64,000 bases of DNA from an uncultured bacterium. Lineage in GTDB: Bacteria > Fidelibacterota > Marinisomatia > SCGC-AAA003-L08 > TS1B11. The position numbers and the translations under genes are program-made. Below are positions 6,446 to 63,941 of the stretch, piece after piece. The notes under the pieces were generated by a model. That model ran no database searches. It saw nothing but the letters and a program-made list of their open reading frames with translations, and had not been told where the DNA came from. The stretch is taken from NCBI GenBank assembly GCA_965372015.1, contig CBDVAP010000002.1, positions 568-64,567 of the forward strand, in the 5' to 3' direction. The first letter of the stretch is position 1, and every line of letters begins with the position of its first letter.

Positions 6446-9316
6446 ATGCGATTTGCTATCCTGACACCCTTTTTTTGTTTCGTGTTGATTTTCAGTCCCC
6501 TGTGCGCTGCCGATCCCGGCAATTCTCCATCTGACACTGTCAGAACTGCAACTGTACCATTCGCCTCGACCACCGGTAAGGCCCGATTCACCTTGCAGGA
6601 TATCCTGCGCCTGCCAGTTGATAACTATATAGGCGTCCTGAGCCTGGTACCCACTGCCACCCTGGAAGACGACGGCGTGCGATTCCATAATGGCCGGGCT
6701 GACGAAACCGTTTACCAGCTGGATGGCCTTACGCTGATTAGCCCCCATTTCCGGCAACGACCTATTCCATTGCCCCTATTTGCGCTGGATAACGTTGTTG
6801 CTAAATTGAGCCCCAGCGACGACCAATATTCCTTTGGGGCCTTCGGGGCTGTGGCAATGACCACCTTGGAAGGGGGCGGGAACTTTCAGGCCCAAGCCCG
6901 CTATTCCACCAGCGCACTGGACTTCAGCCGGGGTAATTCCCCGATCAGGCCTGATGAAGTGACGGAGGACCTCCAACGATTGGAGATTGGGCTGAGTGGA
7001 CCGGTGCCGCTCGCTTCCAGGTGGCTCCCGGGGCGCCTTTCGTACCTACTGGCCGGCGATTACCGTGCCACTCAAGGCCGCTTCCTGAATGAGGACGGCC
7101 TGTTTGGCACGGCTTATGGCAAACTTACCTATCGACAAAAGAACTTTAAGCTGCAGATCTTCGGCCTCAACGACCAGGGAAAATACAATTACTTCGATAA
7201 CCTTTGGAAACAGACGGTACGCGAAGACGATCTTTATAGTGGACGTGAGGGATTCGAGAGCTGGGCCGGAAACGGTATCCTGGACACCGAGGATATCGGT
7301 CTTGATAACGGTACTGGTATTATTATCGGCGCCGGCAACGGGCGGATCGACTATATAGATTTAAATGGCAACGGTGAATGGGATGATTATGAGCTCACCG
7401 AGGATTTGAACTATAACGGTCGGGTGGATAGCGAGGACCTGAACCACAACGGCCAGTTGGATACCCATAATATGCTGGACCACCTTGCCGACCTGGAATC
7501 CAAGACCACGCTCACCGGATTTTCCCTGACCCATCGGCTCTCGGACCGCACCTGGTACCAGATCAGCCTGGCCCGGCACAGCACACGGGATTTTCGTAAT
7601 GTGAAAGAAATCATCAATGAAGATTTGGATGGCGACGAGCGGCTGGACGACCAGGATGAATGGGTGCGGAATTTGGATGGTAGTTACTATTGGAGCGATC
7701 TGGACGGCGATGGCTATTTCGACCGCGGCCGTGAGGACTTAAACGGTAATGGCAGCCTGGATGAGTTCGGCTCAGACTTGTTCACCGACCACAATCACAA
7801 CGGTTTCGTGGACGCATCAGAGAATGGGCCATCGCCCCGCAACTATTTCCTCCGCATGGGTTATGACGATCCCGAAAGCGACTGGATGCCCTGGTCTGGT
7901 ATCCCTTACCTAGGGCAAAAGGATCACAACGGATTTTATTCTTACGGAGCAGGCATGACCTGGGACCGTAATGCCTGGGAATTAAATACCAGTTCAGATG
8001 ATCAGGTTCGTTTCCTGCTATCCAGCCGGGCATTACCCCTTCAGCACCTCCTGCTGGGCTTTGATCTGGATCGCTACCGGCTCTTCCATTACCGGGCTGT
8101 AGATCGGTATGGGTATGGCTTCGAGTATGAACGCCACCCATCCGGATGGGGAGTATTCCTCGATGACCGGATTTCGTTCGCCAACGCTTGGATGAAAGTG
8201 GGCTGGCTATATCAATCATTTGATTTTGATTATTCTGCCGCCGCCAACCCTCGTGACCCAACATGGGATTGGGGTGAGGTCTATTTTAGTGGGGATGAAG
8301 ATACCAACAGTAACGGCCGCCTGGACCCCGGCGAAGACCTGAACGGGAACGGTTTTCTGGACCAGGACTGGATACCCGAGAAGTACCAGGTAGGCATTGA
8401 TGGAGATGGCTTTCCAGTGTACTCCGTCTATCCTGGTGATATCAAAGACCCGCGCAGGAGTACAAACTATGCTTCACACAATCCCCGGCTGGCCTTGGGC
8501 GTTAGATTCCTTGGGCGGCACGAGCTCAGGGCTTCCTATGGAGTATATCCCTTGCATCCTTTATCGGCTGGATTCTACAGCGCATACTTTAACTTCAATC
8601 ACCCTTCAATCAATCTGAAGGTACATCGCGAGGTTGTCTATGAGGTCGCTTACCTATACTCTATATTGAAAGGCCGCGGTTGGATAGAATTCAAATATCG
8701 AGCCAGTGAGTGGGCGCAGGATGATACACTTAGAAATGACCGCATTGAAATAAATGAAGGGCAAAACCTTTCGAACATAGACTTCGGTACCGGAGAGTAC
8801 GAAGATTATACGGCGATCTTGATATTACCGAGCCTTAATGTCGGACCGCTGAACCTGAACGGCCGGGGGGTGTATGCTCAGCGGAAATCCGCCAATCCTA
8901 TCGATGGTCGGACGCAAACATTGGCATTGCATGTAGGGGTTGCCACCCTAGAGCGCTTAGGACCAATTCTGGGTGGTTTCAAGTTGAATGCATTTTATCG
9001 TCATACCAGCCAATCCCCAATCCACTTTCATGGGCGGATTGCAGTCGATAGTCTTTCCATGCCGCCCATCGCCACGCTGGATGTCCGTTTGGGCAAAAGT
9101 ATCAGCTTGGGCAGCTCAGTGGCCGAGCTGTTCCTGGATATACGCAACCTGCTCAATCGTAAGAATCTACTCACTCTCGCCGATGAGGAATGGTATGCGC
9201 TTTACGACGGGGACGGCGATGGTGAGCCTGATTACGATCCGATGGGCAAGTACCAAGATCCCAGAGTATATGATCACGGCCGGTTGGTACGACTAGGGTT
9301 GCAGGTCAGTTTTTAG
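6446..9316 (+). CDS. TonB-dependent-receptor-like outer-membrane beta-barrel with Asp/Asn-rich calcium-binding-type loop insertions
   Basis: Signal peptide [22 protein letters not shown]. Plug-like [12 protein letters not shown] region. C-terminal [10 protein letters not shown] ends in an aromatic residue. Multiple DxNxNGxxD / DxDGDG motifs. Confidence 0.7.
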
Positions 9317-11441
9317 CCTGTGAGCCCTGCCCCAACGCCGCCAGCATCTCCTCACTGTCGGTAGTAGGCGCCCGGCAGGCGAAGTTCCGGCAGACATAGG
9401 CCGTGGCCCGGCCGTCAAGGGCGACCTGGGTGGCCGTGAACGGGGCCAGGCGAGCGATTTGCGACCCCGCCTCCCCCTGCGGGTGTAGCAGGACAACCTT
9501 GTTGGGATGATAGGTCCCGCGCAGGGCCGCCAGCATGTCAAGGGTACTCCTAGCTCCCGGCTCCCCGGCGATCACCACCTCGTATGCCGGGCCTACTGCA
9601 AAATCGACGGCACATAACAGCTGACTATGGGCGCTGGGCGCCTGGTTTACCTGCCCGGAAAAGGCTCGCAGCAGGGCAGCGGCGGTCTGCTCGTATCCCG
9701 GCTCGCCGGTTATGCGCCCCAGTCGCAGCAGGTTCAGGGCGGCCACCGAGTTGCCCGAGGGCACCGCCCCGTCGTAGACCAGCTTGCTGCGCACGAGTAG
9801 TTGTTCACTATCAGTAGCGGTGAAATAATAGCCGCCATCCTCCCCGTCCCAGAACTGCCCGGCCAGTATAGCCTGCAGCTGTATAGCGTCCTCCAGGTAA
9901 TGCACCTTAAAAGTGGCCTCGTATAGGTCCAGCAAGGCCGCGATCATGAAGGCGTAATCATCCAGGTTACCGGGAATACCGGCCTGGCCCTGGCGATAAC
10001 GATGCAGCAGGCGCCCTGACTCGGTGCTCAACTGGACCATGATAAAGCGGGCTGCCTCCTCGGCCGCCATAACGTACCGGGGTTGGTCCAGGGCCTGCCC
10101 GGCGCGGGCCAGGGCACTGATCATCAGGCCGTTCCAGTCGGTGAGTACCTTTTCGTCCCGCATCGGCCGGACCCGTTGCTCCCGCGCCTTTAGCAGGCGC
10201 TCGCGCACCGGTCCCCAGGTCTCCGCCTGCTCCACTGCTAACATGGTTTTCAGATGCAAGATATTGCGCCCGGTGACCTGGCCGCCGGCTTCATCCGCGA
10301 AATTTCCCTCGGCCGCCAAATTAAAGGTCTCCTTAACAAAGGCTGCCTCTGACGGATCAAGGACGGCCTCGATCTCATCGGTAGTCCACAGGTAGAACTT
10401 GCCTTCCTCACCTTCGCTGTCGGCGTCTTCGGCTGAGTAAAATCCTCCTTCAGGGGCAGTGAGGTCGCGCAGCACATAGGTGGCGATCTCGTCCACCGTG
10501 GCGGCGTAGTCGGCCTTGCCGGTGATCAGCCAGGCCTCGGTATAAGCCATCAGCAGCAGAGCCTGGTCATAGAGCATTTTCTCGAAGTGGGGCACCAACC
10601 ACTGTGCGTCGGTCGAATAGCGATGAAAGCCGAAACCGACCTGATCGTAAATCCCACCCAGGCGCAGGGCGGACAAGGTTTTCTCCACCATTTCCAGCGT
10701 CTGTGCGTCGCCGCTACGGTGATAGGACCGCATTAGCAGCAGCAGCTGGTGGGGCGTGGGGAACTTGGGTTGTGAGCCGAAGCCGCCATGGACCGGGTCG
10801 TAGCGCCGCTGGAGGTCATCGTGGGCCCGCTGCAGGGTTTCCGCCCCCAGTTCGCCGCCGGGGGTGCTTTCCTGGCCCTGCCGCAACGCCGCCATGACCG
10901 TTTCCACCGAGCCGCTGATACGCTGCCGGTCGGTTTCCCAGACAGCCCTGATGCGCGGCACCAATTCCAGTAAGCCCGGCCGGCCAAACCGGCTCTCTTT
11001 CGGTATATAGGTAGCCGCGAAGAACGGCTCCCCCTCGGGGGTCATGATAATGGTCAGGGGCCAGCCGCCGGAGCCGGTCATCATCTGACAGACGGCCATG
11101 TAAATATGGTCGATGTCCGGGCGTTCCTCCCGGTCCACCTTGACACAGATAAAGGCCTCGTTGAGCAAGGCCGCCACCGAGGAATCCTCGAACGATTCGT
11201 GAGCCATGACATGGCACCAGTGGCAGGTGGAATAGCCGATGGAGAGGAATATGGGTTTGTCGGCTGCCCGGGCCGCCGCGAAGGCTTCTTCGCCCCACGG
11301 GTACCAGTCCACCGGGTTGTGGGCGTGCTGTTGCAAATAGGGACTGGCTTCATGCGCCAGGCGGTTGGTGGTGGGTTCCATGGTCACTCCTGAACCGGGT
11401 AACATGCTCATCAGCACAACCACCAATACAGCTGGGACCAT
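9306..11441 (-). CDS. Thioredoxin-domain protein of the YyaL/DUF255 (SSP411-like) family
   Basis: [22 protein letters not shown]...[22 protein letters not shown]-terminal signature followed by a long alpha/alpha-toroid-like region. The N-terminus is hydrophobic (possible signal peptide). Confidence 0.85.
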
Positions 11442-14257: not shown

Positions 14258-17200
14258 CTAGCGGATCAAGGTCATCTTGATGGTATGCGTATAGTCCGCC
14301 GTTACTAATCGGGCAAAATAGATTCCGGTGGGTACCGGTCGCCCCATGTGGTCGCTACTGTTCCAGCTGACCTTTTTAAATCCGGCGCTTTCATAGCGCT
14401 CCACCAGTCGGATGACTTCCCGTCCCCGCATATCATAGATCACCAGCCGCACGTGTGACTGCATGGGCAGCTCATAGTGCACCGTGGTCACCGGGTTGAA
14501 CGGGTTGGGATAATTCTGGTGTAGCGCGAACAATTGCGGCAAGTGCGAATCATCCACCACGGCCAGCGTGCTCAGGTCGATCTCCAATGAGGATGGTCCG
14601 TCGGTGTTCCAAGTGGTATCCGAACCCGAAACGGCCCCCACCTCCCACCGGAAGGTTTCCCTCTCCACACCGTTATCTAGCATGAATGTAACCACCAGTT
14701 CCCGCAGCAAGTGTAGCTCTGGTTCAGTTACCGGTTGGGTTATTTCAAACTCGGAGTCTTCCTGCCAGAGGGCGAAGATATAAGTGATCGCATCACCGTC
14801 AGGATCACTGGAAGGTTCCCAGGTGAAAAGGATACTGGTATCGGGATCGTCGGCCTGTATAACCAGGCTGCTGCCACTGGCCGGGCCCACCAACTCAAAG
14901 CCTGTCGGCAAATCATTGACCGGAAGGATGGTCAGGGTAAAGGTGTCCTGGGCTGTGGCCTGTCCATCCATTACGGTCACCACAATCTGGGCCTTTCCAT
15001 TCCAATTGGCTGCCGGGGAGAATGCCATGCTGGTATCTCCCATTGCCACAGTTACCGCTGATGTATCGCTCACGGCGCTGAAGCTCAGTGCATCACCATC
15101 TACATCAACGACGGCTGCCGCAATATCCGCCAGAGAAATCTGGGCGATTACATCTTCAGGGATAAAGAGATCGGGAATAAGGGCAATGAACTGCGGCGCG
15201 TCGTTCACCGGCAGAATCTCAAGTACCAGTGTCTCCTGGACAGATGCCCCAGCCGGGTCTGTGGCGGTCACCTCGATATTTACTGTGCCGTAATAGTTCG
15301 GTGTGAGTACCACGATCAGTTTTTGCTCACTTAAACCGAAAAACCCTTCCAGTCCCGCGTCCGCCGTGGTGGCAGCGAAAGTCAATTGGTCCCCATCCCG
15401 GTCAGTGAAATATTCACCGAGATCGGGAATCAGGGTATCAATGTACGTATCCTCAGAGATCTGCAGATCCGGTAGAGACATCAAACTGTAGGGCGACTGG
15501 TTGGCTGTCAGGCCCGCTGCAAAGCCGGAGAAGTGGGTGATCCAGCCGGTTAAGGTAAGTGCTACCTCATTCACTTCATTGGAATCGGCCACCGACCATT
15601 CACCGGTCCCTTCATTGTAGATCAACAACACCAGGTCAGCAGGTGAGGACCCGTCTGGAATCACGTCCGGATTGTAAGGTACAGTTACTGCCACCGGCAT
15701 GTTGAACTGGAGACCGGTAGGGCCATAGAAGTACAGCACGCCGGCCAGCTCCGGTCCTTCCGGCGACGCGGCGAACTCACCTATTATAATGGTAACTGTA
15801 TCATCTAGAGCACCAGCCGGGATGTTGATGGAGGTTCCCAACCCCGTGCTGACCTCGCCACCTTCCGGTCCCACCTCTTCATTGACGGTTTCATCACCTA
15901 AGTCCACCAGCACAGTCACAGTGGCGGAAGCGCTTCCTCCCTGCCCGTCGCTGATCGTATAGTCGAAAATGTCGGCGCCGCTGAAATCATCCTCGGGCGT
16001 GTAAACGATGGCGTCCCCGAAAATCTCTGTTTCGCCATGGGCCGCCATATCAACGGAAGTGATCGACAGGTCGTTGCCGTCGATATCATCGTCATTGGCT
16101 AGCACCGGGATTGTTACCGGCGCGCCGTCGCCGGTGGTAGCCTGATCATCCAGGGCCACCGGGTCGTCGTTAACCGCCTCGACTGTCACGCTCACACCAG
16201 CGGAGGCCGAGCCGCCCTGGCCGTCGCTCACGTGGATCGTAAAGGTAGCGTCGCCGTCCCCCTCGCCCGGGGTGCCGGAGACCGTGGCCCCGTCGGCCGA
16301 CAGCCATCCGGGCAGGCCGGTGAATGAGAAGGTCAAGTCATCGCCGTCCGCATCGGTGGCAGTGGCGGTATAGCTGAAAGGTACATCCTCGGTGGCGTCG
16401 GCCGAGGTAGCCGAAGTGATTACCGGATCGTCGTTAACCGCCTCGACTGTCACGGTGACCTGTGCTTCATCTTCGACACCCTCAGCGTCCCGGATGGTGT
16501 AAAAGAAAATATCATCACCCGAGAAATTGGGCGTCGGTTCATAGGACAGGCTCTTGCCACCGTCGATGATATGCAGAACGCCGTTAGCCTGCCTGAAGTT
16601 GGTGATGATCAGATCATCTCCGTCTACATCGATATCATTGGCGAGCACATCCAGGGTGCTGACCGGGGAATCTTCGGAAACGGAGAAAGCGTCTGCCACC
16701 GCCACCGGGGCGTCGTTCACCGCGCTGACCGTGAAGGTGGCCGGGTCGCTGTCGCTCAAATCGGACGGATCGGTGGCAGTGAAGGTGATGGCCTCACTAC
16801 CTGACCATTCGGCATCAGGAATGCCGATGGTTGCTATCCGGCTGCCATTGATAGAGACGGTCAACGCGCTGTTCCCGCCGTATGTCCACGTGATCTCGCT
16901 ATCGGCATTGTCCAGGTCGCTTACGTACTCGTCCAGTGCGATGGTGGCAAAGGAGCCGCCCTCGCCAATTGTCTGGTTGGGGATATCCGCCACCACCGGC
17001 GCATCGTTCACCGCGCCGACCGTGAAGGTGGCCGGGTCGCTGTCACTCAAGCCGGACGGATCGGTGGCAGTGAAAGTGATGGCCTCACTACCTGACCATT
17101 CGGCATCAGGAATGCCGATGGTTGCTATCCGGCTGCCATCGATGGAGACGGTCAACGCACCATTCCCGCCATATGTCCAAGTGATCTCGCTATCGGTATT

Positions 17201-18559
17201 GTCCAGGTCGTCTACGTACTCGTCCAGTGCGATGGTGGCAAAGGAACCGCCCTCATCAATTGTCTGGTTGGGGATATCCGCCACCACCGGAGCATCGTTC
17301 ACGCCGCCAACCGTAACCGTGACCTGTGCTTCATCTTCGACACCCTCGGCGTCCCGGATAGTGTAAAGGAAAATATCATCACCCGAGAAATTGGGCGTGG
17401 GTTCATAGGACAGGTGTTTTCCACCGTTGATGATATGCAGCTTACCGTTGGCCTGCCTGAAGTTGGTGATGATGAGATCATCTCCGTCTACATCGATATC
17501 ATTGGCGAGCACATCCAGTGTACCGACCGGGGAATCTTCGGAAACGGAGAAAGCGTCTGCCACCGCCACCGGGGCATCGTTCACCGCGCCGACCGTGAAG
17601 GTGGCCGGGTCGCTGTCGCTCAAGCCGGACGGATCGGTAGCAGTGAAGGTGATGGCCTCACTACCTGACCATTGGGCATCAGGAATGCCGATGGTTGCTA
17701 TCCGGCTGCCATCGATAGAGACGGTCAACGCCCTGTTCCCACCGTATGTCCAGGTGATCTCGCTATCGGAATTGTCCGGGTCGCTTACGTACTCGTCCAG
17801 TGCGATGGTGGCAAAGGAGCCGCCCTCATCGATTGTCTGGTCGGTGATATCCGCCACCACCGGCGCGTCGTTCACCGCGCCGACCGTGAAGGTAGCCGGG
17901 TCGCTGTCGCTCAAGCCGGTGGGATCGGTGGCGGTGAAGGTGATGGCCTCACTGCCTGACCATTGGGCATCAGGAATGCCGATGGTTGCTATCCGGCTGC
18001 CATCGATGGAGACGGTCAACGCACCATTCCCGCCATATGTCCAAGTGATCTCGCTATCGGTATTGTCCAGGTCGTCTACGTACTCGTCCAGTGCGATGGC
18101 GGCAAAGGAGCCGCCCTCATCAATTGTCTGGTTGGGGATATCCGCCACCATTGGCGCGTCATTAGTCCCACTAACCGTGACGGTGATGGTGCCGGTGGCG
18201 GTGTTGCCTTGATCCCCGTCATCTTGGCCCTGGTCTTTGCGCAGGGTATAGGTGAAACTGTCGACGCCATAGAAACCGGTGCTGGGGGTATACGTGAGGG
18301 TGCCGTCTTCGTTGTCGATAACCGTACCATTGGCTGGAGTCGAAAAACCATCCAGATGGATCTCTTGCCCTTTCTTCTTACCCTTGCCTTTGTCCTTGCC
18401 TTCATCGTCGTCGTCATCAGCTATCACGGTAATCGTCACCGGTGTACCTTCGTCCGTGCTGACCTCCATATCGGGCGCGGTCAGCTTATCGGCCCGCAGT
18501 ACCTGAAAGCCCAGGAAAAATACCAGCAACTGTAAAGTGATTGTCCTATTGATCTTCAT
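14258..18559 (-). CDS. Giant (1433 aa) cell-surface repeat protein with a T9SS C-terminal sorting domain
   Basis: Signal peptide MKINRTITLQLLVFFLGFQVLRA. Many ~95-97-aa VNDAP-bounded cadherin-like/tandem-95-type repeats. C-terminus NYPNPFNPVTTVHYELP...GIYFARLVTADYTHTIKMTLIR. Confidence 0.85.
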   Translation of the reverse strand: MKINRTITLQLLVFFLGFQVLRADKLTAPDMEVSTDEGTPVTITVIADDDDDEGKDKGKGKKKGQEIHLDGFSTPANGTVIDNEDGTLTYTPSTGFYGVDSFTYTLRKDQGQDDGDQGNTATGTITVTVSGTNDAPMVADIPNQTIDEGGSFAAIALDEYVDDLDNTDSEITWTYGGNGALTVSIDGSRIATIGIPDAQWSGSEAITFTATDPTGLSDSDPATFTVGAVNDAPVVADITDQTIDEGGSFATIALDEYVSDPDNSDSEITWTYGGNRALTVSIDGSRIATIGIPDAQWSGSEAITFTATDPSGLSDSDPATFTVGAVNDAPVAVADAFSVSEDSPVGTLDVLANDIDVDGDDLIITNFRQANGKLHIINGGKHLSYEPTPNFSGDDIFLYTIRDAEGVEDEAQVTVTVGGVNDAPVVADIPNQTIDEGGSFATIALDEYVDDLDNTDSEITWTYGGNGALTVSIDGSRIATIGIPDAEWSGSEAITFTATDPSGLSDSDPATFTVGAVNDAPVVADIPNQTIGEGGSFATIALDEYVSDLDNADSEITWTYGGNSALTVSINGSRIATIGIPDAEWSGSEAITFTATDPSDLSDSDPATFTVSAVNDAPVAVADAFSVSEDSPVSTLDVLANDIDVDGDDLIITNFRQANGVLHIIDGGKSLSYEPTPNFSGDDIFFYTIRDAEGVEDEAQVTVTVEAVNDDPVITSATSADATEDVPFSYTATATDADGDDLTFSFTGLPGWLSADGATVSGTPGEGDGDATFTIHVSDGQGGSASAGVSVTVEAVNDDPVALDDQATTGDGAPVTIPVLANDDDIDGNDLSITSVDMAAHGETEIFGDAIVYTPEDDFSGADIFDYTISDGQGGSASATVTVLVDLGDETVNEEVGPEGGEVSTGLGTSINIPAGALDDTVTIIIGEFAASPEGPELAGVLYFYGPTGLQFNMPVAVTVPYNPDVIPDGSSPADLVLLIYNEGTGEWSVADSNEVNEVALTLTGWITHFSGFAAGLTANQSPYSLMSLPDLQISEDTYIDTLIPDLGEYFTDRDGDQLTFAATTADAGLEGFFGLSEQKLIVVLTPNYYGTVNIEVTATDPAGASVQETLVLEILPVNDAPQFIALIPDLFIPEDVIAQISLADIAAAVVDVDGDALSFSAVSDTSAVTVAMGDTSMAFSPAANWNGKAQIVVTVMDGQATAQDTFTLTILPVNDLPTGFELVGPASGSSLVIQADDPDTSILFTWEPSSDPDGDAITYIFALWQEDSEFEITQPVTEPELHLLRELVVTFMLDNGVERETFRWEVGAVSGSDTTWNTDGPSSLEIDLSTLAVVDDSHLPQLFALHQNYPNPFNPVTTVHYELPMQSHVRLVIYDMRGREVIRLVERYESAGFKKVSWNSSDHMGRPVPTGIYFARLVTADYTHTIKMTLIR
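16455..18165 (-). repeat. Two tandem 864-nt (288-aa) near-identical units inside the adhesin gene, each built from two 291-nt A repeats plus one B repeat
   Basis: gtgacctgtgcttcatcttcgacaccctc occurs at 16455 and 17319 (offset 864). Long by-eye alignment shows only scattered substitutions. The antisense track ORFs 16554..17366 and 17427..18212 are shadows of the same duplication. Confidence 0.85.
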
Positions 18560-18952: not shown

Positions 18953-20011
18953 TCAAGCGGCCGGACGGGAAGCCTCGAATTTGGCTTTCTGCTCCTGGAA
19001 ATAGTTGTCCTCCGGCTGCAGTTTGATGCACACTGTGATCACTTCCAGGGCCTCGTCCACCCGTCCCAGCTTCCATAATACCTCGGCCTCGGTGTCCAAT
19101 ATTCCCGCCCGGCTCTCCGCCTCATCCTTTGCAGCCAGTTCCACACCCAACCGGACCCGCTCCAGGGCGTCCTCCAGGTTCTGTTCCAACTGGGTCATGC
19201 GCCAGGCATAGCTGTTCAACAGTCGCGGGGTGGCCGCCTCGATCTGAATACTGTAGTTCACCAGCTGCTTAAAACTGGCCGCTTCCGCCAGGATATCGCG
19301 CCGGGACCGGTAAATTTGAACCACCCCCTGCATCGCTTGGGCGGCGTACTCGCCCTCAGGTACAGCCTCCAGATAGGCGTCCAAGGGGTCGGTGATACTG
19401 TCCGTCAGGGCCAAGGCTTCGGCCACCTTGAATTCGCCCAACCGGCCTTCAGGTGAGTTGTCCTTGGATAGCAGCTGAACGCTGCGCCACACGTCAAACG
19501 CCTGGGCGTATGCCCCCCGATCATCCAACTTCCAGCCGTAACGCAGGAAAGCGTCCAGGTCGTGCGGATTCTTCTCGACATCCGCCCGAATACTTTCCAG
19601 TGTATTTTTGCCACTGGTAATGCGGTTTAATTCCTCCAGGAATCTGTCCGGCGGCAGATAGCCGATGATCCGATCCACCTCGCCACCCGTGGCCCGGGCG
19701 AAAACAACAGTGGGATATCCCGTGATATGATACCGCTCAGCCAGGTCCACACCCTCGCCCTTCTCGGCGTCAATCCTCATGCTCAGGAAACTATCCTCGG
19801 CGAAGGCCATCACCCGCTGGTCAGGGAACGTAACGGCATCCAGCCGTTTGCACCATACTCACCACTCGGTGTAGAAATCGAGCATAATCATATTTTCCCC
19901 GGCGGTGGCCCGGGCCTCGGCAAAGGTCCCTTGAAACCATTTGAAACTGGGCTGGGAGCCACAGCCCCACATCATGGCAGAAAGGGCGAATATTGAAAGC
20001 GTTCGTTTCAT
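18953..20011 (-). CDS. Exported thioredoxin-fold + TPR protein with an in-frame UGA (candidate selenocysteine) at codon 51
   Basis: The track ORF 18953..19813 is extended in the same frame to the ATG at 20011. This gives MKRTLSIFALSAMMWGCGSQ (lipoprotein-like signal) ...MIMLDFYTEW-[TGA 19859-19861]-VWCKRLDAVTF..., so the TGA sits at the first Cys of WCxxC. The downstream part has the thioredoxin-fold GYPT motif and then TPR-like repeats. Confidence 0.7.
19832..19848 (-). promoter_or_regulatory. SECIS-like hairpin
   Basis: AACGGC-UGGAU-GCCGUU, 17 nt. It begins at the 11th nt after the UGA. The loop contains GG. Confidence 0.55.
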
Positions 20012-23999: not shown

Positions 24000-24125
24000 A
24001 TGCAGGAAATCAGCCGGGAAGAACTAAAGGGAAAAATTGACCGCAAGGATAACTTCAAGCAGGTAATTACCTTGAGTAAAGAGGCAGTAATCCCTTGGTC
24101 CATCAATGTTACCTCGCCTGAATAG
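24000..24125 (+). pseudogene. Possible rhodanese-domain remnant (41 codons)
   Basis: MQEISREELKGKIDRKDNFKQVITLSKEAVIPWSINVTSPE resembles the start of single-domain rhodaneses (ELK.K.D....F.LI ... IPGSINIP) but is truncated and lacks the active-site loop. Confidence 0.2.
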
Positions 24126-24322
24126 GCCCGGAGTCTGCTTACTGTTGATGATGAAGTGGTGGTATCAGGTTATCCCCTTGAATGTGAGGCAGTCTGATTT
24201 TAACCCAAAATGTCCAAAAAGCTCTAAACCAGTACGCTCGATAACAGGATTCAACGGGCCGCTGTATTACTTCATAAATGATAATTAGCAGATGTATATA
24301 GGAAGGAATCCAACAATTAAAA

Positions 24323-25069
24323 ATGAATAAGAGTAAATTTAAAATAGGATACTCGGACATTGGGGGCGTATACATCGGGAAGAATATACAAGCGGATTTT
24401 CATAAACAGCATACCATAACAATTGTTCTAACTCTTGGTGAACCCTTCAAAATAGCTCTTAAGAACAATAGCGCGAAGACATACATGGTTGTTGTCGTTC
24501 AAAAAGATGTTTGTTACAATTTCTTGAGTAGCAGTAAGAGTTATGAAGTATTCATACACCTTGACCCCTACTCTGAAAGCGGGATCAGTCTGACCCAGAG
24601 TACAAACCTAATACAGGAACTTAGTATTAAACCATTTTCAGAAGTATTGAAGGAATTCCAAGATTGGTTTAGAAGTTCGGAAAATGACGAGAACCGGACA
24701 GAGTTTCTTATAAATAAAGTTTCCTCCATTGCAGCTAACAAGAACCCCGAATCCGTGAATATTGATGATCGCATCAAAAGAAGTATGCAACTGATTAAAC
24801 AAAGTGATACCGATAAATTATCCATAAGCCAAGTAGCCAATGCCGTCAATTTATCACCAAGTCATTTTGCTCATTTATTTAAGGAAGGAACCGGTCTGCC
24901 ATTCAGAAAATTCGTGCTTCATTGCAAACTCATTAAATCGTTACTGGCAATGTACAAACAAAGCAGTTTGACAAAAGCATCCTATCACGGCGGGTTTTCA
25001 GACCAACCACATTTCAGCAGGACATTCAAAAGCGCCTTTGGCATGAAGCCTTCATTGAGTCGCAAATAG
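24323..25069 (+). CDS. AraC-family transcriptional regulator
   Basis: C-terminal double HTH: ISQVANAVNLSPSHFAHLFKEGTGLPFRKF...GFSDQPHFSRTFKSAFGMKPS. The gene is AT-rich. Confidence 0.85.
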   Translation: MNKSKFKIGYSDIGGVYIGKNIQADFHKQHTITIVLTLGEPFKIALKNNSAKTYMVVVVQKDVCYNFLSSSKSYEVFIHLDPYSESGISLTQSTNLIQELSIKPFSEVLKEFQDWFRSSENDENRTEFLINKVSSIAANKNPESVNIDDRIKRSMQLIKQSDTDKLSISQVANAVNLSPSHFAHLFKEGTGLPFRKFVLHCKLIKSLLAMYKQSSLTKASYHGGFSDQPHFSRTFKSAFGMKPSLSRK

Positions 25070-25188
25070 TCAGTTTATTCAAGTATTGGACAGAACTCCT
25101 TAGGAAATTTGCGGTGCTAGATACTATTAGGAGATGAAAGTGATCTTTATTAACGAGCACAATAGAGTTGAGCACGAGGGGTAATTCC

Positions 25189-25599
25189 ATGGACAAGAGA
25201 TTCTTATTCAGCTTTCTGGGGGCATTCATGGTTATGTATGTCCTTGCCTTCTTTTTCCATGTGATCATTGCCGACGGCTATATCCACACGGTATTTGAGA
25301 ATGTTGTCAAACCGGGTGCCCATCATGAGGAATTGTGGGGTATTCTTGTCAACTATTTGATCGTAGCACTGGCAATGGCCTGGATATATCCAAGGGGATA
25401 CGACGGCGGTAGCCCCGTTACGGAAGGCTTTCGCTTTGGCCTGGCCATAGGGATTCTCGTGCATATATCAGCTGCTTTTGCGCTATCCGCTACAATGGAT
25501 ATTTCCTTGAGTGGAATCCTTGGAGACAAGCTATGGCATGTAGTTGAAACAATCTGTGGGGGGATAACAATCGGTCTCATCAGAGGAAAAATGAATTAA
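25189..25599 (+). CDS. Small integral membrane protein (about 4 TM), family unknown
   Basis: MDKRFLFSFLGAFMVMYVLAFFF... with hydrophobic segments throughout. The ATG at 25189 is preferred over the TTG at 25168. Confidence 0.5.
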   Translation: MDKRFLFSFLGAFMVMYVLAFFFHVIIADGYIHTVFENVVKPGAHHEELWGILVNYLIVALAMAWIYPRGYDGGSPVTEGFRFGLAIGILVHISAAFALSATMDISLSGILGDKLWHVVETICGGITIGLIRGKMN

Positions 25600-25623
25600 G
25601 AAAGTATTGGAACGGAGAAAATT

Positions 25624-26271
25624 ATGCAAAAGTTTAGTACCCAGGCAGTTAAGGAAATATACGCAGGCAAAATGGCCAAAAAATATGATTTATCAATGTC
25701 GCACATATTCGGAAGATTCAAAAGGCTGGCATTTGATGACTCATCTTTAAAAAGCGGTGATAGAGTTTTAGTATTTTGCTGTGGAACAGGTTTGGATTTT
25801 CCTCATATTTTAAAAATAATTGGTAAAGATGGAAGAATTACCGGCGTTGACTATTCCCCTGAAATGCTGGCAATAGCAAAGAAGAAAATAAAAAAGTATC
25901 AATGGGATAATATTGAGTTAATCGAAGCAGACACCACTAAATTCAAGGATAAACTTGACAAGGAATTCGATGTTGGTATTTGTACTTTAGGAATGTCAAT
26001 AATACCAGAATACAAATCAGCATACTATAACTTACTTTCTTATATTAAGAAACAAGGAGAAATGATTATTGGCGATGCGCAGCTAGCATCTGGTTGGCTC
26101 GCTCGTTTTAATCCTTTTACCATATTTCTTGCAAAAAGGTATGGTGGAACATATCAAGGTCATCAAAATAGCTTGGTGTTATATTCTATGATGAAAAAGG
26201 AATTAACCGAAGTAAGAAAGAGGGAATTCTTCTTCAAGTCATACTATTACTGTATCGGGAAAACCAATTGA
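25624..26271 (+). CDS. Class I SAM-dependent methyltransferase
   Basis: Motif I VLVFCCGTGLDF, motif II GVDYSPEML; 215 aa; AT-rich. Confidence 0.8.
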   Translation: MQKFSTQAVKEIYAGKMAKKYDLSMSHIFGRFKRLAFDDSSLKSGDRVLVFCCGTGLDFPHILKIIGKDGRITGVDYSPEMLAIAKKKIKKYQWDNIELIEADTTKFKDKLDKEFDVGICTLGMSIIPEYKSAYYNLLSYIKKQGEMIIGDAQLASGWLARFNPFTIFLAKRYGGTYQGHQNSLVLYSMMKKELTEVRKREFFFKSYYYCIGKTN

Positions 26272-57015: not shown

Positions 57016-57376
57016 TGGTGGAGGCGGGGGGAGTCGAACCCCCGTCCGAAAAGGCGACCTGAGCTGCTTCTACGTGCGTAGTCTGTTGCTGAGTCTCACC
57101 GCCCGGGCGCCGGCAGACAAACTACCGGGCGGCCAGCCCGCAAAGTCTTATCCCGTACCTGCGGGCAATGTACGGGACCAGTCCACTAATATGACGCCGG
57201 CACCTGGGGAAATGGACACTCCTCAGGGCGACGAGCTGCCTAACTGTTAAGCGGCAGCCAGATAACCGTAGTTATCGGCATTTGTGTTGAATTGCCCGGA
57301 TGATTCACGAGGTAACCAGACATCCTCGGCACGCCACGGCTCTCATCGTCCAATCCGTCGAAGCCGTTTCGCCCCC
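57016..57376 (-). ncRNA. ssrA: tmRNA (SsrA)
   Basis: 5' GGGGGCGAAACGGCTTCGACGG and 3' GGACGGGGGTTCGACTCCCCCCGCCTCCACCA form an acceptor stem with a G3-U pair. Tag reading frame GCC GAT AAC TAC GGT TAT CTG GCT GCC GCT TAA (ADNYGYLAAA) at 57247-57279. Confidence 0.9.
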
Positions 57377-62941: not shown

Positions 62942-63014
62942 GCGCCATTAGCTCAAATGGTAGAGCAGCGGACTCTTAATCCGAAGGTTGAAGGTTCGAT
63001 TCCTTCATGGCGCA
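62942..63014 (+). tRNA. tRNA-Lys (anticodon CUU)
   Basis: Hand-folded cloverleaf: acceptor gcgccat/atggcgc, anticodon loop cuCUUaa, T-loop ttcgatt, discriminator a. Confidence 0.85.
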
Positions 63015-63048
63015 CAACAGGGTACCAAGGGTGGTGCCCACTGTTTGC

Positions 63049-63121
63049 GACACGGTAGCTCAGTCGGTAGAGCAGCGGCCTTTTAAGCCGTTGGTCGTGG
63101 GTTCGATTCCCACCCGTGTCA
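63049..63121 (+). tRNA. tRNA-Lys (anticodon UUU)
   Basis: Acceptor gacacgg/ccgtgtc, anticodon loop cuUUUaa, T-arm gtggg-ttcgatt-cccac. Confidence 0.85.
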
Positions 63122-63941
63122 CAACGTCAAGACCCTCTATTCCCGACGGGACTAGGGGGTCTTCTGTTGCCTGGTGTGTAGTTGCAGGTTGGGCAGGCTT
63201 AGGCAGCTCAGAGGGGGGGTCTAGGCGCGTTTTGGGCGCGTTTTTTGGGCGCGTTTTTAGCAAGCTGTCAATATTGGTATCGGATAGCCGCCCGGTGAAA
63301 TGATCCCCCAGGTCTGTCAACATCTTTCGCCTTCGTTCCTCGAGTTGCTTGTAGTAATATTTCTCGGTGATTTTGATTGTGCTATGCCCGGCAATCTTGG
63401 ATACGTCCTCCAAGGGATAGCCAAGGTAAATCAGGTGGGATACAAAGCTGTCCCGCAAATCGTGAACCGTTGCATCTATCCTGGCGCTGTTGAGAATCGC
63501 CTTGATTTTATGCCCTATATAGGCTGGAGTAAACGGAAAGGGGTAAAGCGAATCCGCTGGCTCGATGTATCGAGCCTTGCGATACGGTTTCATCCTTAAT
63601 TCCCTAAAGATTTCTAGCAAGACTGTATCCAAGGGAAACTCGGTGGATTTGTGGCCCTTGCGGATCGGTAGCGTCAGAATTTCATTCTCGAAATCTATGC
63701 CCTTCCAAGTGAGCTTGGGCTTGAGCACTTCCGAAAGTCGCGCACCAGTCAAGAGGTAAACCATAATTAAGGGATACCACCGGTTGCCGGGTGGACATTT
63801 CTTGAAAAGCCGCTCGAGTTCGGCGGGGGTCAATGGCCTTGGTCGGCCTGTATCGGCTGGGAATAGTTCAACGGCAGCAAAAGGATTGGAGGAAATGTAG
63901 TCTTTTTTCCAGCCTGACCTGCCCCCCAAAAGCTGTACCAA
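63060..63941 (-). CDS. Tyrosine recombinase/integrase (catalytic domain intact; N-terminus short; 3' end of the ORF reads antisense through tRNA-Lys)
   Basis: TGARLSE (Arg), HDLRDS (His-x-x-Arg), GHSTIKITEKYY (His, Tyr). TTG start with an in-frame TGA two codons upstream. The last ~20 codons (VTRVGIEPTTNGLKGRCSTD) are the tRNA complement. Confidence 0.7.
   Translation of the reverse strand: MVQLLGGRSGWKKDYISSNPFAAVELFPADTGRPRPLTPAELERLFKKCPPGNRWYPLIMVYLLTGARLSEVLKPKLTWKGIDFENEILTLPIRKGHKSTEFPLDTVLLEIFRELRMKPYRKARYIEPADSLYPFPFTPAYIGHKIKAILNSARIDATVHDLRDSFVSHLIYLGYPLEDVSKIAGHSTIKITEKYYYKQLEERRRKMLTDLGDHFTGRLSDTNIDSLLKTRPKNAPKTRLDPPSELPKPAQPATTHQATEDPLVPSGIEGLDVVTRVGIEPTTNGLKGRCSTD
63224..63258. 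repeat. Three tandem copies of g(g)gcgcgtttt(tt)
   Basis: ggcgcgtttt gggcgcgtttttt gggcgcgttttt, read directly. Confidence 0.8.

Follow-up and report, generated by a model that had tools for sequence, protein, structure and literature searches.

The subject of this analysis is a stretch of 64,000 nucleotides from an uncultured bacterium of the Fidelibacterota (contig CBDVAP010000002.1), called the window below, and a gene on its minus strand which, judging from its sequence and that of its relatives, is very likely a genuine selenoprotein gene that has been mis-annotated. Read through a single in-frame UGA, this gene most probably encodes an exported selenoprotein of 352 residues, built of a lipoprotein-type signal peptide, a thioredoxin (Trx) domain similar to the gamma domain of DsbD and carrying the motif Sec51-Val-Trp-Cys54 (Sec, selenocysteine), and a C-terminal domain resembling tetratricopeptide repeats (TPR). 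We refer to proteins of this composition as the Trx-TPR family. The frame begins with an ATG at 20011-20009 and ends with a TGA at 18955-18953; between them it is interrupted only by the TGA at 19861-19859, which is codon 51 and is marked by the asterisk in the translation ...IMLDFYTEW*VWCKRLDAVTF.... In the list of open reading frames (ORFs) of the window, the gene starts at a GTG at 19813 and its product has 286 residues (MMAFAED...). An earlier note on this DNA had pointed to this start, to the single TGA and to the frame extending upstream as far as the ATG, and all three observations hold on the sequence. The features on which the argument turns are these:

18953..20011, minus strand: full coding sequence of the predicted selenoprotein, 352 codons with Sec at codon 51; the frame is open save for one TGA, and relatives match query residues 1-352 across it.
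18953..19813, minus strand: shortened ORF of the ORF finders and of the public annotation, 286 residues with a GTG start; taken from the ORF list and from the public entry P0001.
19859..19861, minus strand: UGA codon 51, predicted to be the Sec that opens the U-V-W-C redox motif and serves as its nucleophile; the column holds TGA or a Cys codon in relatives.
19850..19852, minus strand: Cys54 (TGC), the predicted resolving cysteine of UxxC; the codon at +3 is TGT or TGC in 74 of the 74 loci scored.

The behaviour of codon 51 was followed in the DNA of 80 species-representative relatives, taken from GTDB genomes (Marinimicrobia/Fidelibacterota metagenome-assembled genomes, MAGs). The column of the first cysteine of CxxC holds TGA at 59 of these loci and TGT or TGC at 19, two further loci ending at a contig edge, and neither TAA nor TAG was encountered there in any of the 80. 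Complete chromosomes are among the carriers of the TGA form, namely CP070656.1 (L003), CP070638.1 (L007) and CP070787.1 (L027). Full-length homologues have Cys opposite the TGA (TDWCxWCKRL), and this is the only residue with which it pairs in them, in agreement with the proposal of the earlier note that UGA occupies the first redox position of a W-C-x-W-C motif. Coding conservation extends over both sides of the codon. The upstream segment comprises 50-90 codons, is open in all relatives, and is conserved; with respect to the approximately 50 residues that had been added to the protein by the earlier note, the signal peptide, an FPW motif and LDFYT[DE]W are all kept. A screen independent of any selenocysteine insertion sequence (SECIS), in which all TGA-bridged open frames in 1.28 Mb were considered, again found the codon-51 site paired only with a stop symbol or with C, in a proportion of about 59:20 per family query. 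Sec forms stand to Cys forms as approximately 3:1 in the family. A quick neighbour-joining (NJ) tree combined with parsimony placed Sec at the root and counted about nine Sec-to-Cys replacements, and on these sequences the Sec form appears to be ancestral. All that is asked of a selenoprotein family under the published criteria of PMC1088965, i.e. two or more Cys homologues, a TGA conserved in two or more sequences, and a stem-loop with a small apical loop containing G, is found here many times over. A single full-length homologue, encoded on a Logan assembly contig (P0012), has Trp at the Sec column (TEWWSWCKRL, with TGG for TGA); this could be a sequencing error, a natural inactivation by a Sec-to-Trp change, or a hint of read-through with Trp.

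The second line of evidence comes from the messenger RNA (mRNA) just downstream of codon 51, in which two nested elements can be delimited:

19832..19848, minus strand: SECIS-like hairpin AACGGC-UGGAU-GCCGUU, 17 nt, 10 nt past the TGA; seen in the sequence and co-varying in relatives.
19846-19834, minus strand: conserved hairpin core CGGC-UGGAU-GCCG; it begins 12 nt after the UGA, or 15 nt when counted from the U of that codon.

The 17-nt hairpin described in the earlier note is present at 19848-19832, and its spacing, conservation and co-variation support the comparison with a SECIS; what is common to the whole family, however, is only the inner 4 bp with the loop, since the outer two A-U pairs occur in about half of the sequences. 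When 60 Sec-type sequences (the 59 loci and the window) were aligned, standard pairs were formed in 236 of the 236 cells of the 4-bp core, with compensatory changes in three of the four pairs (GC55/UA3/GU1, GC51/GU4/AU3/UA1 and CG57/UA2). The covariation score was reached by none of 500 column shuffles, and sliding the register lowered the pairing to 5-72%. The core codes for R-L-D-A, and in Cys-type genes the R-L-D peptide is kept through a scatter of synonymous codons, most of these genes having no hairpin; 52.8% of the same core cells are paired in the 18 that could be aligned. An intact stem is found in 60/60 Sec-type against 2/19 Cys-type sequences, CTG for Leu at +6 in 56/59 against 8/19, and CGG for Arg at +5 in 51/56 against 4/13 (Fisher tests, in which phylogeny is not corrected for), while adjacent codons, such as that of Thr at -3, vary freely in both sets alike. 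The hairpin is therefore specific to genes with UGA.

Individual loci illustrate the same constraint. In the Sec-type loci L060 (968-1021) and L071 (10151-10204), a stem-loop CGUU-UGGAC-AACG is built from other codons, CGT TTG GAC AAC (R-L-D-N), and involves a change of Ala to Asn; their Cys-type sister, L079 (10145-10198), reads CGTT TGGAT GAGG and its stem is broken. On the other hand, two Cys-type loci, L002 (10127-10180) and L031 (4848-4901), with the Cys codons TGT and TGC, retain the intact CGGC-UGGAU-GCCG and have Sec-type sisters on the NJ tree, as expected after a recent replacement of Sec by Cys, and their stems are apparent fossil SECIS elements. When sequence was filtered for a TGA, a frame open on both sides, a GC-rich 4-bp stem and an xGGxx loop 12-25 nt downstream, only 55 genes of this family emerged from some 2.6 Mb, both strands counted. 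Chance could account for the hairpin by itself, but not for its combination with the TGA and the open frame.

As a small hairpin within the coding sequence, having a 17-nt form 10 nt after UGA and a small apical loop containing G, the element resembles the minimal SECIS of Escherichia coli fdhF. The fdhF element lies 11 nt from its UGA and has a bulged U. Unlike it, the element described here has another loop sequence, and family-wide it consists only of the 4-bp stem and the UGGAU loop.

The family has already been reported, as two reads which we assign to it by sequence were published in 2005 as selenoproteins (PMC1088965). Four 'Thiol-disulfide isomerase-like' selenoproteins appear in the supplement of that work on the Sargasso Sea selenoproteome (Zhang, Fomenko & Gladyshev 2005). 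Two of these, AACY01546613 and AACY01592196, fall in the Trx-TPR family by homology and have U at the same position of UXXC. AACY01592196 (MVLVDFETDWuTWCDRLD...) matches the window protein in BLASTP at 2e-20 over 56 residues, and AACY01546613 (MLDFYSPWuGACNRLD...LNSYGWRMSELEMNLDDALEK...) at 5e-50 over 261 residues, including the TPR hallmark LNSYGWRMSELEMNLDDALE; in both alignments U falls on the TGA column. The hairpins of these reads, CGCU-UGGAU-AGCG and CGGU-UGGAU-ACUG, stand in the same register and provide further compensatory variants. In 2005, the family was known from fragments of 57 and 253 residues whose source organisms were unknown and which were assigned to no COG or Pfam entry, and its description did not include the signal peptide, the TPR domain, the origin from Marinimicrobia, the predominance and apparent ancestry of Sec, the covariation of the hairpin or the scale of mis-annotation (PMC1088965). 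The other two reads of the published family, AACY01075364 and AACY01523057 (WFWSPNuGQC and WFWAPWuGGC, respectively), look like TlpA/ResA-type proteins and are unrelated to the Trx-TPR family; the 'Thiol-disulfide isomerase-like' family (PMC1088965) is heterogeneous.

The protein resulting from translation across codon 51 has three parts:

19961..20011, minus strand: signal peptide with a lipobox-like M-W-G-C, the codon of Cys17 being 19963-19961; seen in the sequence and conserved in relatives.
19616..19942, minus strand: thioredoxin-fold domain, residues ~24-132, similar to DsbD-gamma, DsbH and 2KUC; from Pfam, partial NCBIfam matches, structure searches and the P0008 model.
18962..19603, minus strand: C-terminal all-helical TPR-like domain, residues ~137-350, with the family hallmarks LNSYAWRMTQLE and DTEAEVLWKLGR; from invariant columns, TPR matches and the P0008 model (14 helices, pLDDT >90).

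All three had been foreseen in the earlier note, and each is borne out by comparison. A basic N-terminus followed by a hydrophobic stretch and a lipobox-like Cys is shared by no fewer than 52 of 75 relatives. In a small Sec-type clade (L005, L011, L012, L017 and L035), a plain signal peptide ends in ...LIGQQQ or AQAQQ and has no lipobox Cys, and from these sequences the lipid anchor seems to have been lost there and export kept. When the protein was compared with Pfam with Cys put in for the stop at codon 51, four profiles, namely Thioredoxin_2, Thioredoxin_7, Thioredoxin and DsbH, exceeded their gathering scores, and each of them straddled this codon; the best was Thioredoxin_2 (PF13098; 2.8e-13, 50.5 bits with a cut-off of 27, residues 39-128), and Thioredoxin_7 (PF13899) reached 33.7 bits (cut-off 27). 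NCBIfam has no model for the family. Its best partial matches, the DsbD gamma domain and the DsbD-like end of the selenoprotein TsoB, lie far under their cut-offs, and membership of full-length DsbD fails, as NF001419 gives 66 bits against a cut-off of 330, with the gamma domain alone being matched. Among solved structures, the closest by sequence are 2KUC (1.5e-26) and DsbD-gamma (~1e-17), and the C-terminal half matches TPR proteins.

The fold was read from the AlphaFold model of P0008, a Cys-form homologue 52% identical to the window protein (pLDDT 93.9, pTM 0.85). It shows a thioredoxin fold at about residues 24-132, followed by 14 helices, and the CxxC lies at the start of helix alpha-1 (H51-60). 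The Trx domain superposes on 2KUC with a TM score of 0.83, on DsbD-gamma with ~0.75 and on DsbH with 0.67, and the helical domain aligns structurally with consensus TPR and with the TPR of OGT. Taken together, the sequence and the model of the homologue indicate that the protein is exported and probably lipid-anchored, and that it combines a DsbD-gamma-like thiol-disulfide oxidoreductase with a fused TPR domain.

Proteins known to be built on the same fold help to place this one. DsbD-gamma, DsbH and the Bacteroides 'putative disulphide-isomerase' 2KUC share its fold and the position of the active site at 27-34% identity, and all of them are reductase-type thioredoxins located in the envelope, as the Trx-TPR protein probably is. 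Unlike DsbD, the Trx-TPR protein is predicted to be a free-standing lipoprotein that does not form part of a membrane electron transporter, with Sec in place of Cys and with a C-terminal TPR domain. The suggestion of the earlier note that the architecture recalls CnoX/YbbN is correct as to composition: among solved structures, E. coli YbbN/CnoX (3QOU) alone combines these two domains, Trx plus TPR, and it was ranked first by Foldseek for the P0008 model (E 4.8e-7). The resemblance does not extend to the global structure, the superposition being poor (TM 0.26-0.32, RMSD 21 A, 15% identity), nor to location, as CnoX is cytoplasmic whereas the window protein is predicted to be exported and has UxxC/CxxC. 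The Trx domain of E. coli CnoX is not known to have a CxxC. The likeness to CnoX is an analogy of architecture and not family membership.

Among selenoproteins, UxxC thioredoxin-fold proteins are, according to the literature, the commonest class in marine bacteria. A 'Thiol:disulfide interchange protein' with UxxC and the domain PF13098 (Thioredoxin_2) is listed in PMC13188914 and PMC9312934, and the 'Trx-like 2 (cd02953)' family of the Global Ocean Sampling (GOS) data contains Cys over Sec at ~100:1 (22 Sec vs 2,098 Cys; PMC2398784). With these the Trx-TPR family shares PF13098 as its best Pfam domain, the DsbD-gamma-like subfamily and Sec as the first residue of UxxC. In the descriptions of the PF13098 UxxC selenoproteins (reference sequence WP_011366075.1), with which orthology would be putative, no fusion to TPR is mentioned. 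GOS Trx-like 2 is strongly biased to Cys, in contrast to the predominance of Sec in the Trx-TPR family, and the GOS supplement holds no matching sequence strings.

Several observations weigh against the conclusion that selenocysteine is inserted at codon 51. Incorporation of selenium is predicted from sequence alone. The 64-kb window and 1.22 Mb of the relatives' flanks yielded neither selA, selB, selD nor tRNA-Sec in searches comprising tblastn with E. coli SelA, SelB and SelD, a tRNA scan of the window and the 80 loci, and Pfam on about 30 window ORFs, and no second selenoprotein gene was detected there, either by the hairpin filter or by the SECIS-independent TGA/Cys screen. The conserved stem, of just 4 bp, is short for a SelB-binding element, and the bulged U of the fdhF element is missing from it. 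The 50-nt fold from the UGA is thermodynamically ordinary (z = 0.32 vs dinucleotide shuffles) and is for this reason set aside as evidence. The covariance-model match that the earlier note had envisaged was not obtained, no Rfam SECIS family being hit at the gathering threshold or even at E <= 10; bacterial SECIS elements have been reported to be too diverse for a single model. Finally, no redox partner of the DsbD/CcdA type is linked to the gene among the window ORFs or in the relatives' neighbourhoods, and thus the enzymatic role is argued from homology. The remaining hits of the selenoprotein screens were rejected as off-frame or gene-boundary artefacts.

As regards the Sec machinery, its absence from the window and the flanks is uninformative rather than negative, as would be expected for unlinked genes. 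SelD was reported in three SAR406 single-cell genomes (PMC5029168), and this 'orphan SelD' listing was all that a search for literature on Marinimicrobia, SAR406 or Fidelibacterota together with selenoproteins returned. The residual doubt about the selenoprotein gene is due to the machinery of this genome being unverified and to the shortness of the conserved stem.

These two points are also what keeps alive the best of the other explanations, improbable as we consider it, namely that the hairpin slows termination and a near-cognate tRNA puts Trp or Cys at the UGA, with no involvement of selenium. The Trp encoded at this column by P0012 would fit such a mechanism, and misreading of UGA by Cys-tRNA would likewise give an active CxxC. 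However, the exclusive alternation of TGA with Cys, with repeated replacement of TGA by Cys, is the classic signature of Sec; the register of the hairpin is fixed and its 5-nt loop contains G, as in bacterial SECIS elements; SelD is present in the phylum; and the family was accepted as a selenoprotein under the standard criteria of the field (PMC1088965).

That the UGA is a true stop, separating a 50-residue exported peptide from a separately initiated protein of 286 residues with its start at GTG 19813, is very improbable, even if every public annotation calls the gene in this way. The homologue search returned two populations, full-length proteins of 340-385 residues and a larger set of calls of 265-287 residues from Marinimicrobia, Neomarinimicrobiota and Fidelibacterota MAGs, which cover ~76-81% of the query at identities from 100% down to ~35%; dozens of these shortened entries are labelled 'hypothetical' or 'TPR repeat' proteins. 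One of them, P0001, is a public call of 285 residues, 100% identical to the window protein and covering 81% of the latter. In a library of 1.84 billion representative proteins, 899 clusters match at E <= 1e-30, and among the best 61 of these representatives 34 start just past the Sec column. A protein so shortened would have no strand beta-1, no helix alpha-1, nothing of the Trx active site and no signal peptide. Moreover, the annotated starts are not conserved, with M, V or L codons spread over some 40 codons, and two of the short public calls begin at a Met directly 3' of the Sec column (MWCKRL...); the Cys-type orthologues, for their part, are single full-length proteins. The 286-residue ORF is an artefact of taking UGA51 as a stop.

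It is extremely improbable that the TGA arose by an error of sequencing or assembly or marks a recent pseudogene, being a corrupted TGC or TGT of a gene that truly encodes a Cys protein or is dead. TGA is one base away from either Cys codon, the window derives from a metagenome-type assembly, and P0012 has TGG at the column. Nevertheless, 59 species-level assemblies, independent of one another and produced in many studies, have the same TGA, TAA and TAG never taking its place, both halves of the gene are under purifying selection, and the constraint on the hairpin at the nucleotide level goes with TGA specifically; the codon census, the SECIS-independent screen and the hairpin covariation effectively refute this explanation. 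In-frame TGAs of uncultured bacteria do sometimes reflect alternative codes, but a genome-wide reassignment of TGA to Trp (code 4) or Gly (code 25) has hardly any probability left, because 18 of the 36 long ORFs of the window, the Trx-TPR gene included, end in TGA, which is thereby the most frequent ordinary terminator there, because neither the window nor 1.22 Mb of sequence from relatives contains another convincing in-frame TGA, and because the column pairs with Cys and not with Trp or Gly.

If, as we favour, codon 51 is recoded as selenocysteine during translation, the established bacterial mechanism suggests how this would occur. The mRNA hairpin, located 10-12 nt downstream with its core CGGC-UGGAU-GCCG, would bind SelB carrying Sec-tRNA(Sec), and SelB would bring the latter to the A site of the ribosome, where it would compete with release factor 2. 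By homology of its domains, the exported protein may be a thiol-disulfide oxidoreductase of the periplasm or envelope, with reduction or isomerization as its likeliest activity. Sec51 would attack as the nucleophile, the selenylsulfide would be resolved by Cys54, and the TPR domain would possibly hold a client or partner protein. The dependence on SelB, the incorporation of selenium, the nature of the substrates and the direction in which the redox reaction runs are all points which we infer.

In the window, the neighbours of the gene encode a pirin, an MscS-type channel, a C69 peptidase and a 1433-residue repeat protein, and in about one third of relatives it comes after genes for a thioesterase, AccA, GT2, RmlD and DUF4837; the conserved neighbours, being only housekeeping genes, gave no functional clue. 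The 1433-residue protein (14258-18559, minus strand), encoded directly downstream of the selenoprotein gene, contains several near-identical internal repeats (...VNDAPVVADIPNQTIDEGGSF...), which yield long spurious ORFs on the opposite strand, and its C-terminal segment resembles a secretion-sorting domain. A second member of the same thioredoxin-fold superfamily is encoded 8 kb from the selenoprotein gene (9306-11441, minus strand); this protein of 711 residues has the domains DUF255/Thioredox_DsbH (5e-78) and Thioredoxin_7 and is of the ordinary Cys type.

The remainder of the window carries trp and aromatic amino-acid genes, ClpXP, trigger factor and histidine kinases. A low-GC island at 24001-26000 (GC 0.397 vs ~0.57 elsewhere in the window), with genes for an AraC-type regulator (24323-25069, plus strand) and a methyltransferase dependent on S-adenosylmethionine (SAM) (25624-26271, plus strand), was probably acquired horizontally. 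A transfer-messenger RNA (tmRNA) with the tag ADNYGYLAAA is encoded at 57016-57376 (minus strand), and two adjoining tRNA-Lys genes, CTT and TTT, at 62942-63015 and 63049-63122 (both plus strand).

The findings presented here do not overturn the current understanding, as UxxC selenoproteins with a thioredoxin fold are common and fragments of this family were listed in 2005. They do indicate that essentially every public call of the gene in Marinimicrobia/Fidelibacterota is cut at the Sec codon, hiding both the signal peptide and the redox centre, and this error will persist because NCBIfam has no model of the family. The compact, strongly co-varying in-frame hairpin could serve as a seed for a covariance model of a SECIS class absent from Rfam. 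For the biology of the group, a widespread and mostly uncultured marine phylum would use selenocysteine in an envelope redox protein, with a predominance of Sec that is unusual.

A more far-reaching interpretation, which we regard as rather unlikely, would make the protein an ancestrally selenium-dependent envelope 'chaperedoxin' present throughout the phylum Marinimicrobia, i.e. an exported analogue of CnoX with a Sec-Cys centre coupled to the binding of clients by the TPR domain, and with a 13-nt SECIS core, among the smallest natural ones in bacteria, recognised by a divergent SelB. If this were true, a phylum abundant in the dark ocean and in oxygen-minimum zones would be constitutively dependent on selenium, and the approximately nine independent replacements of Sec by Cys, some of them with a fossil SECIS, would offer a natural series in which to ask why Sec has been kept.

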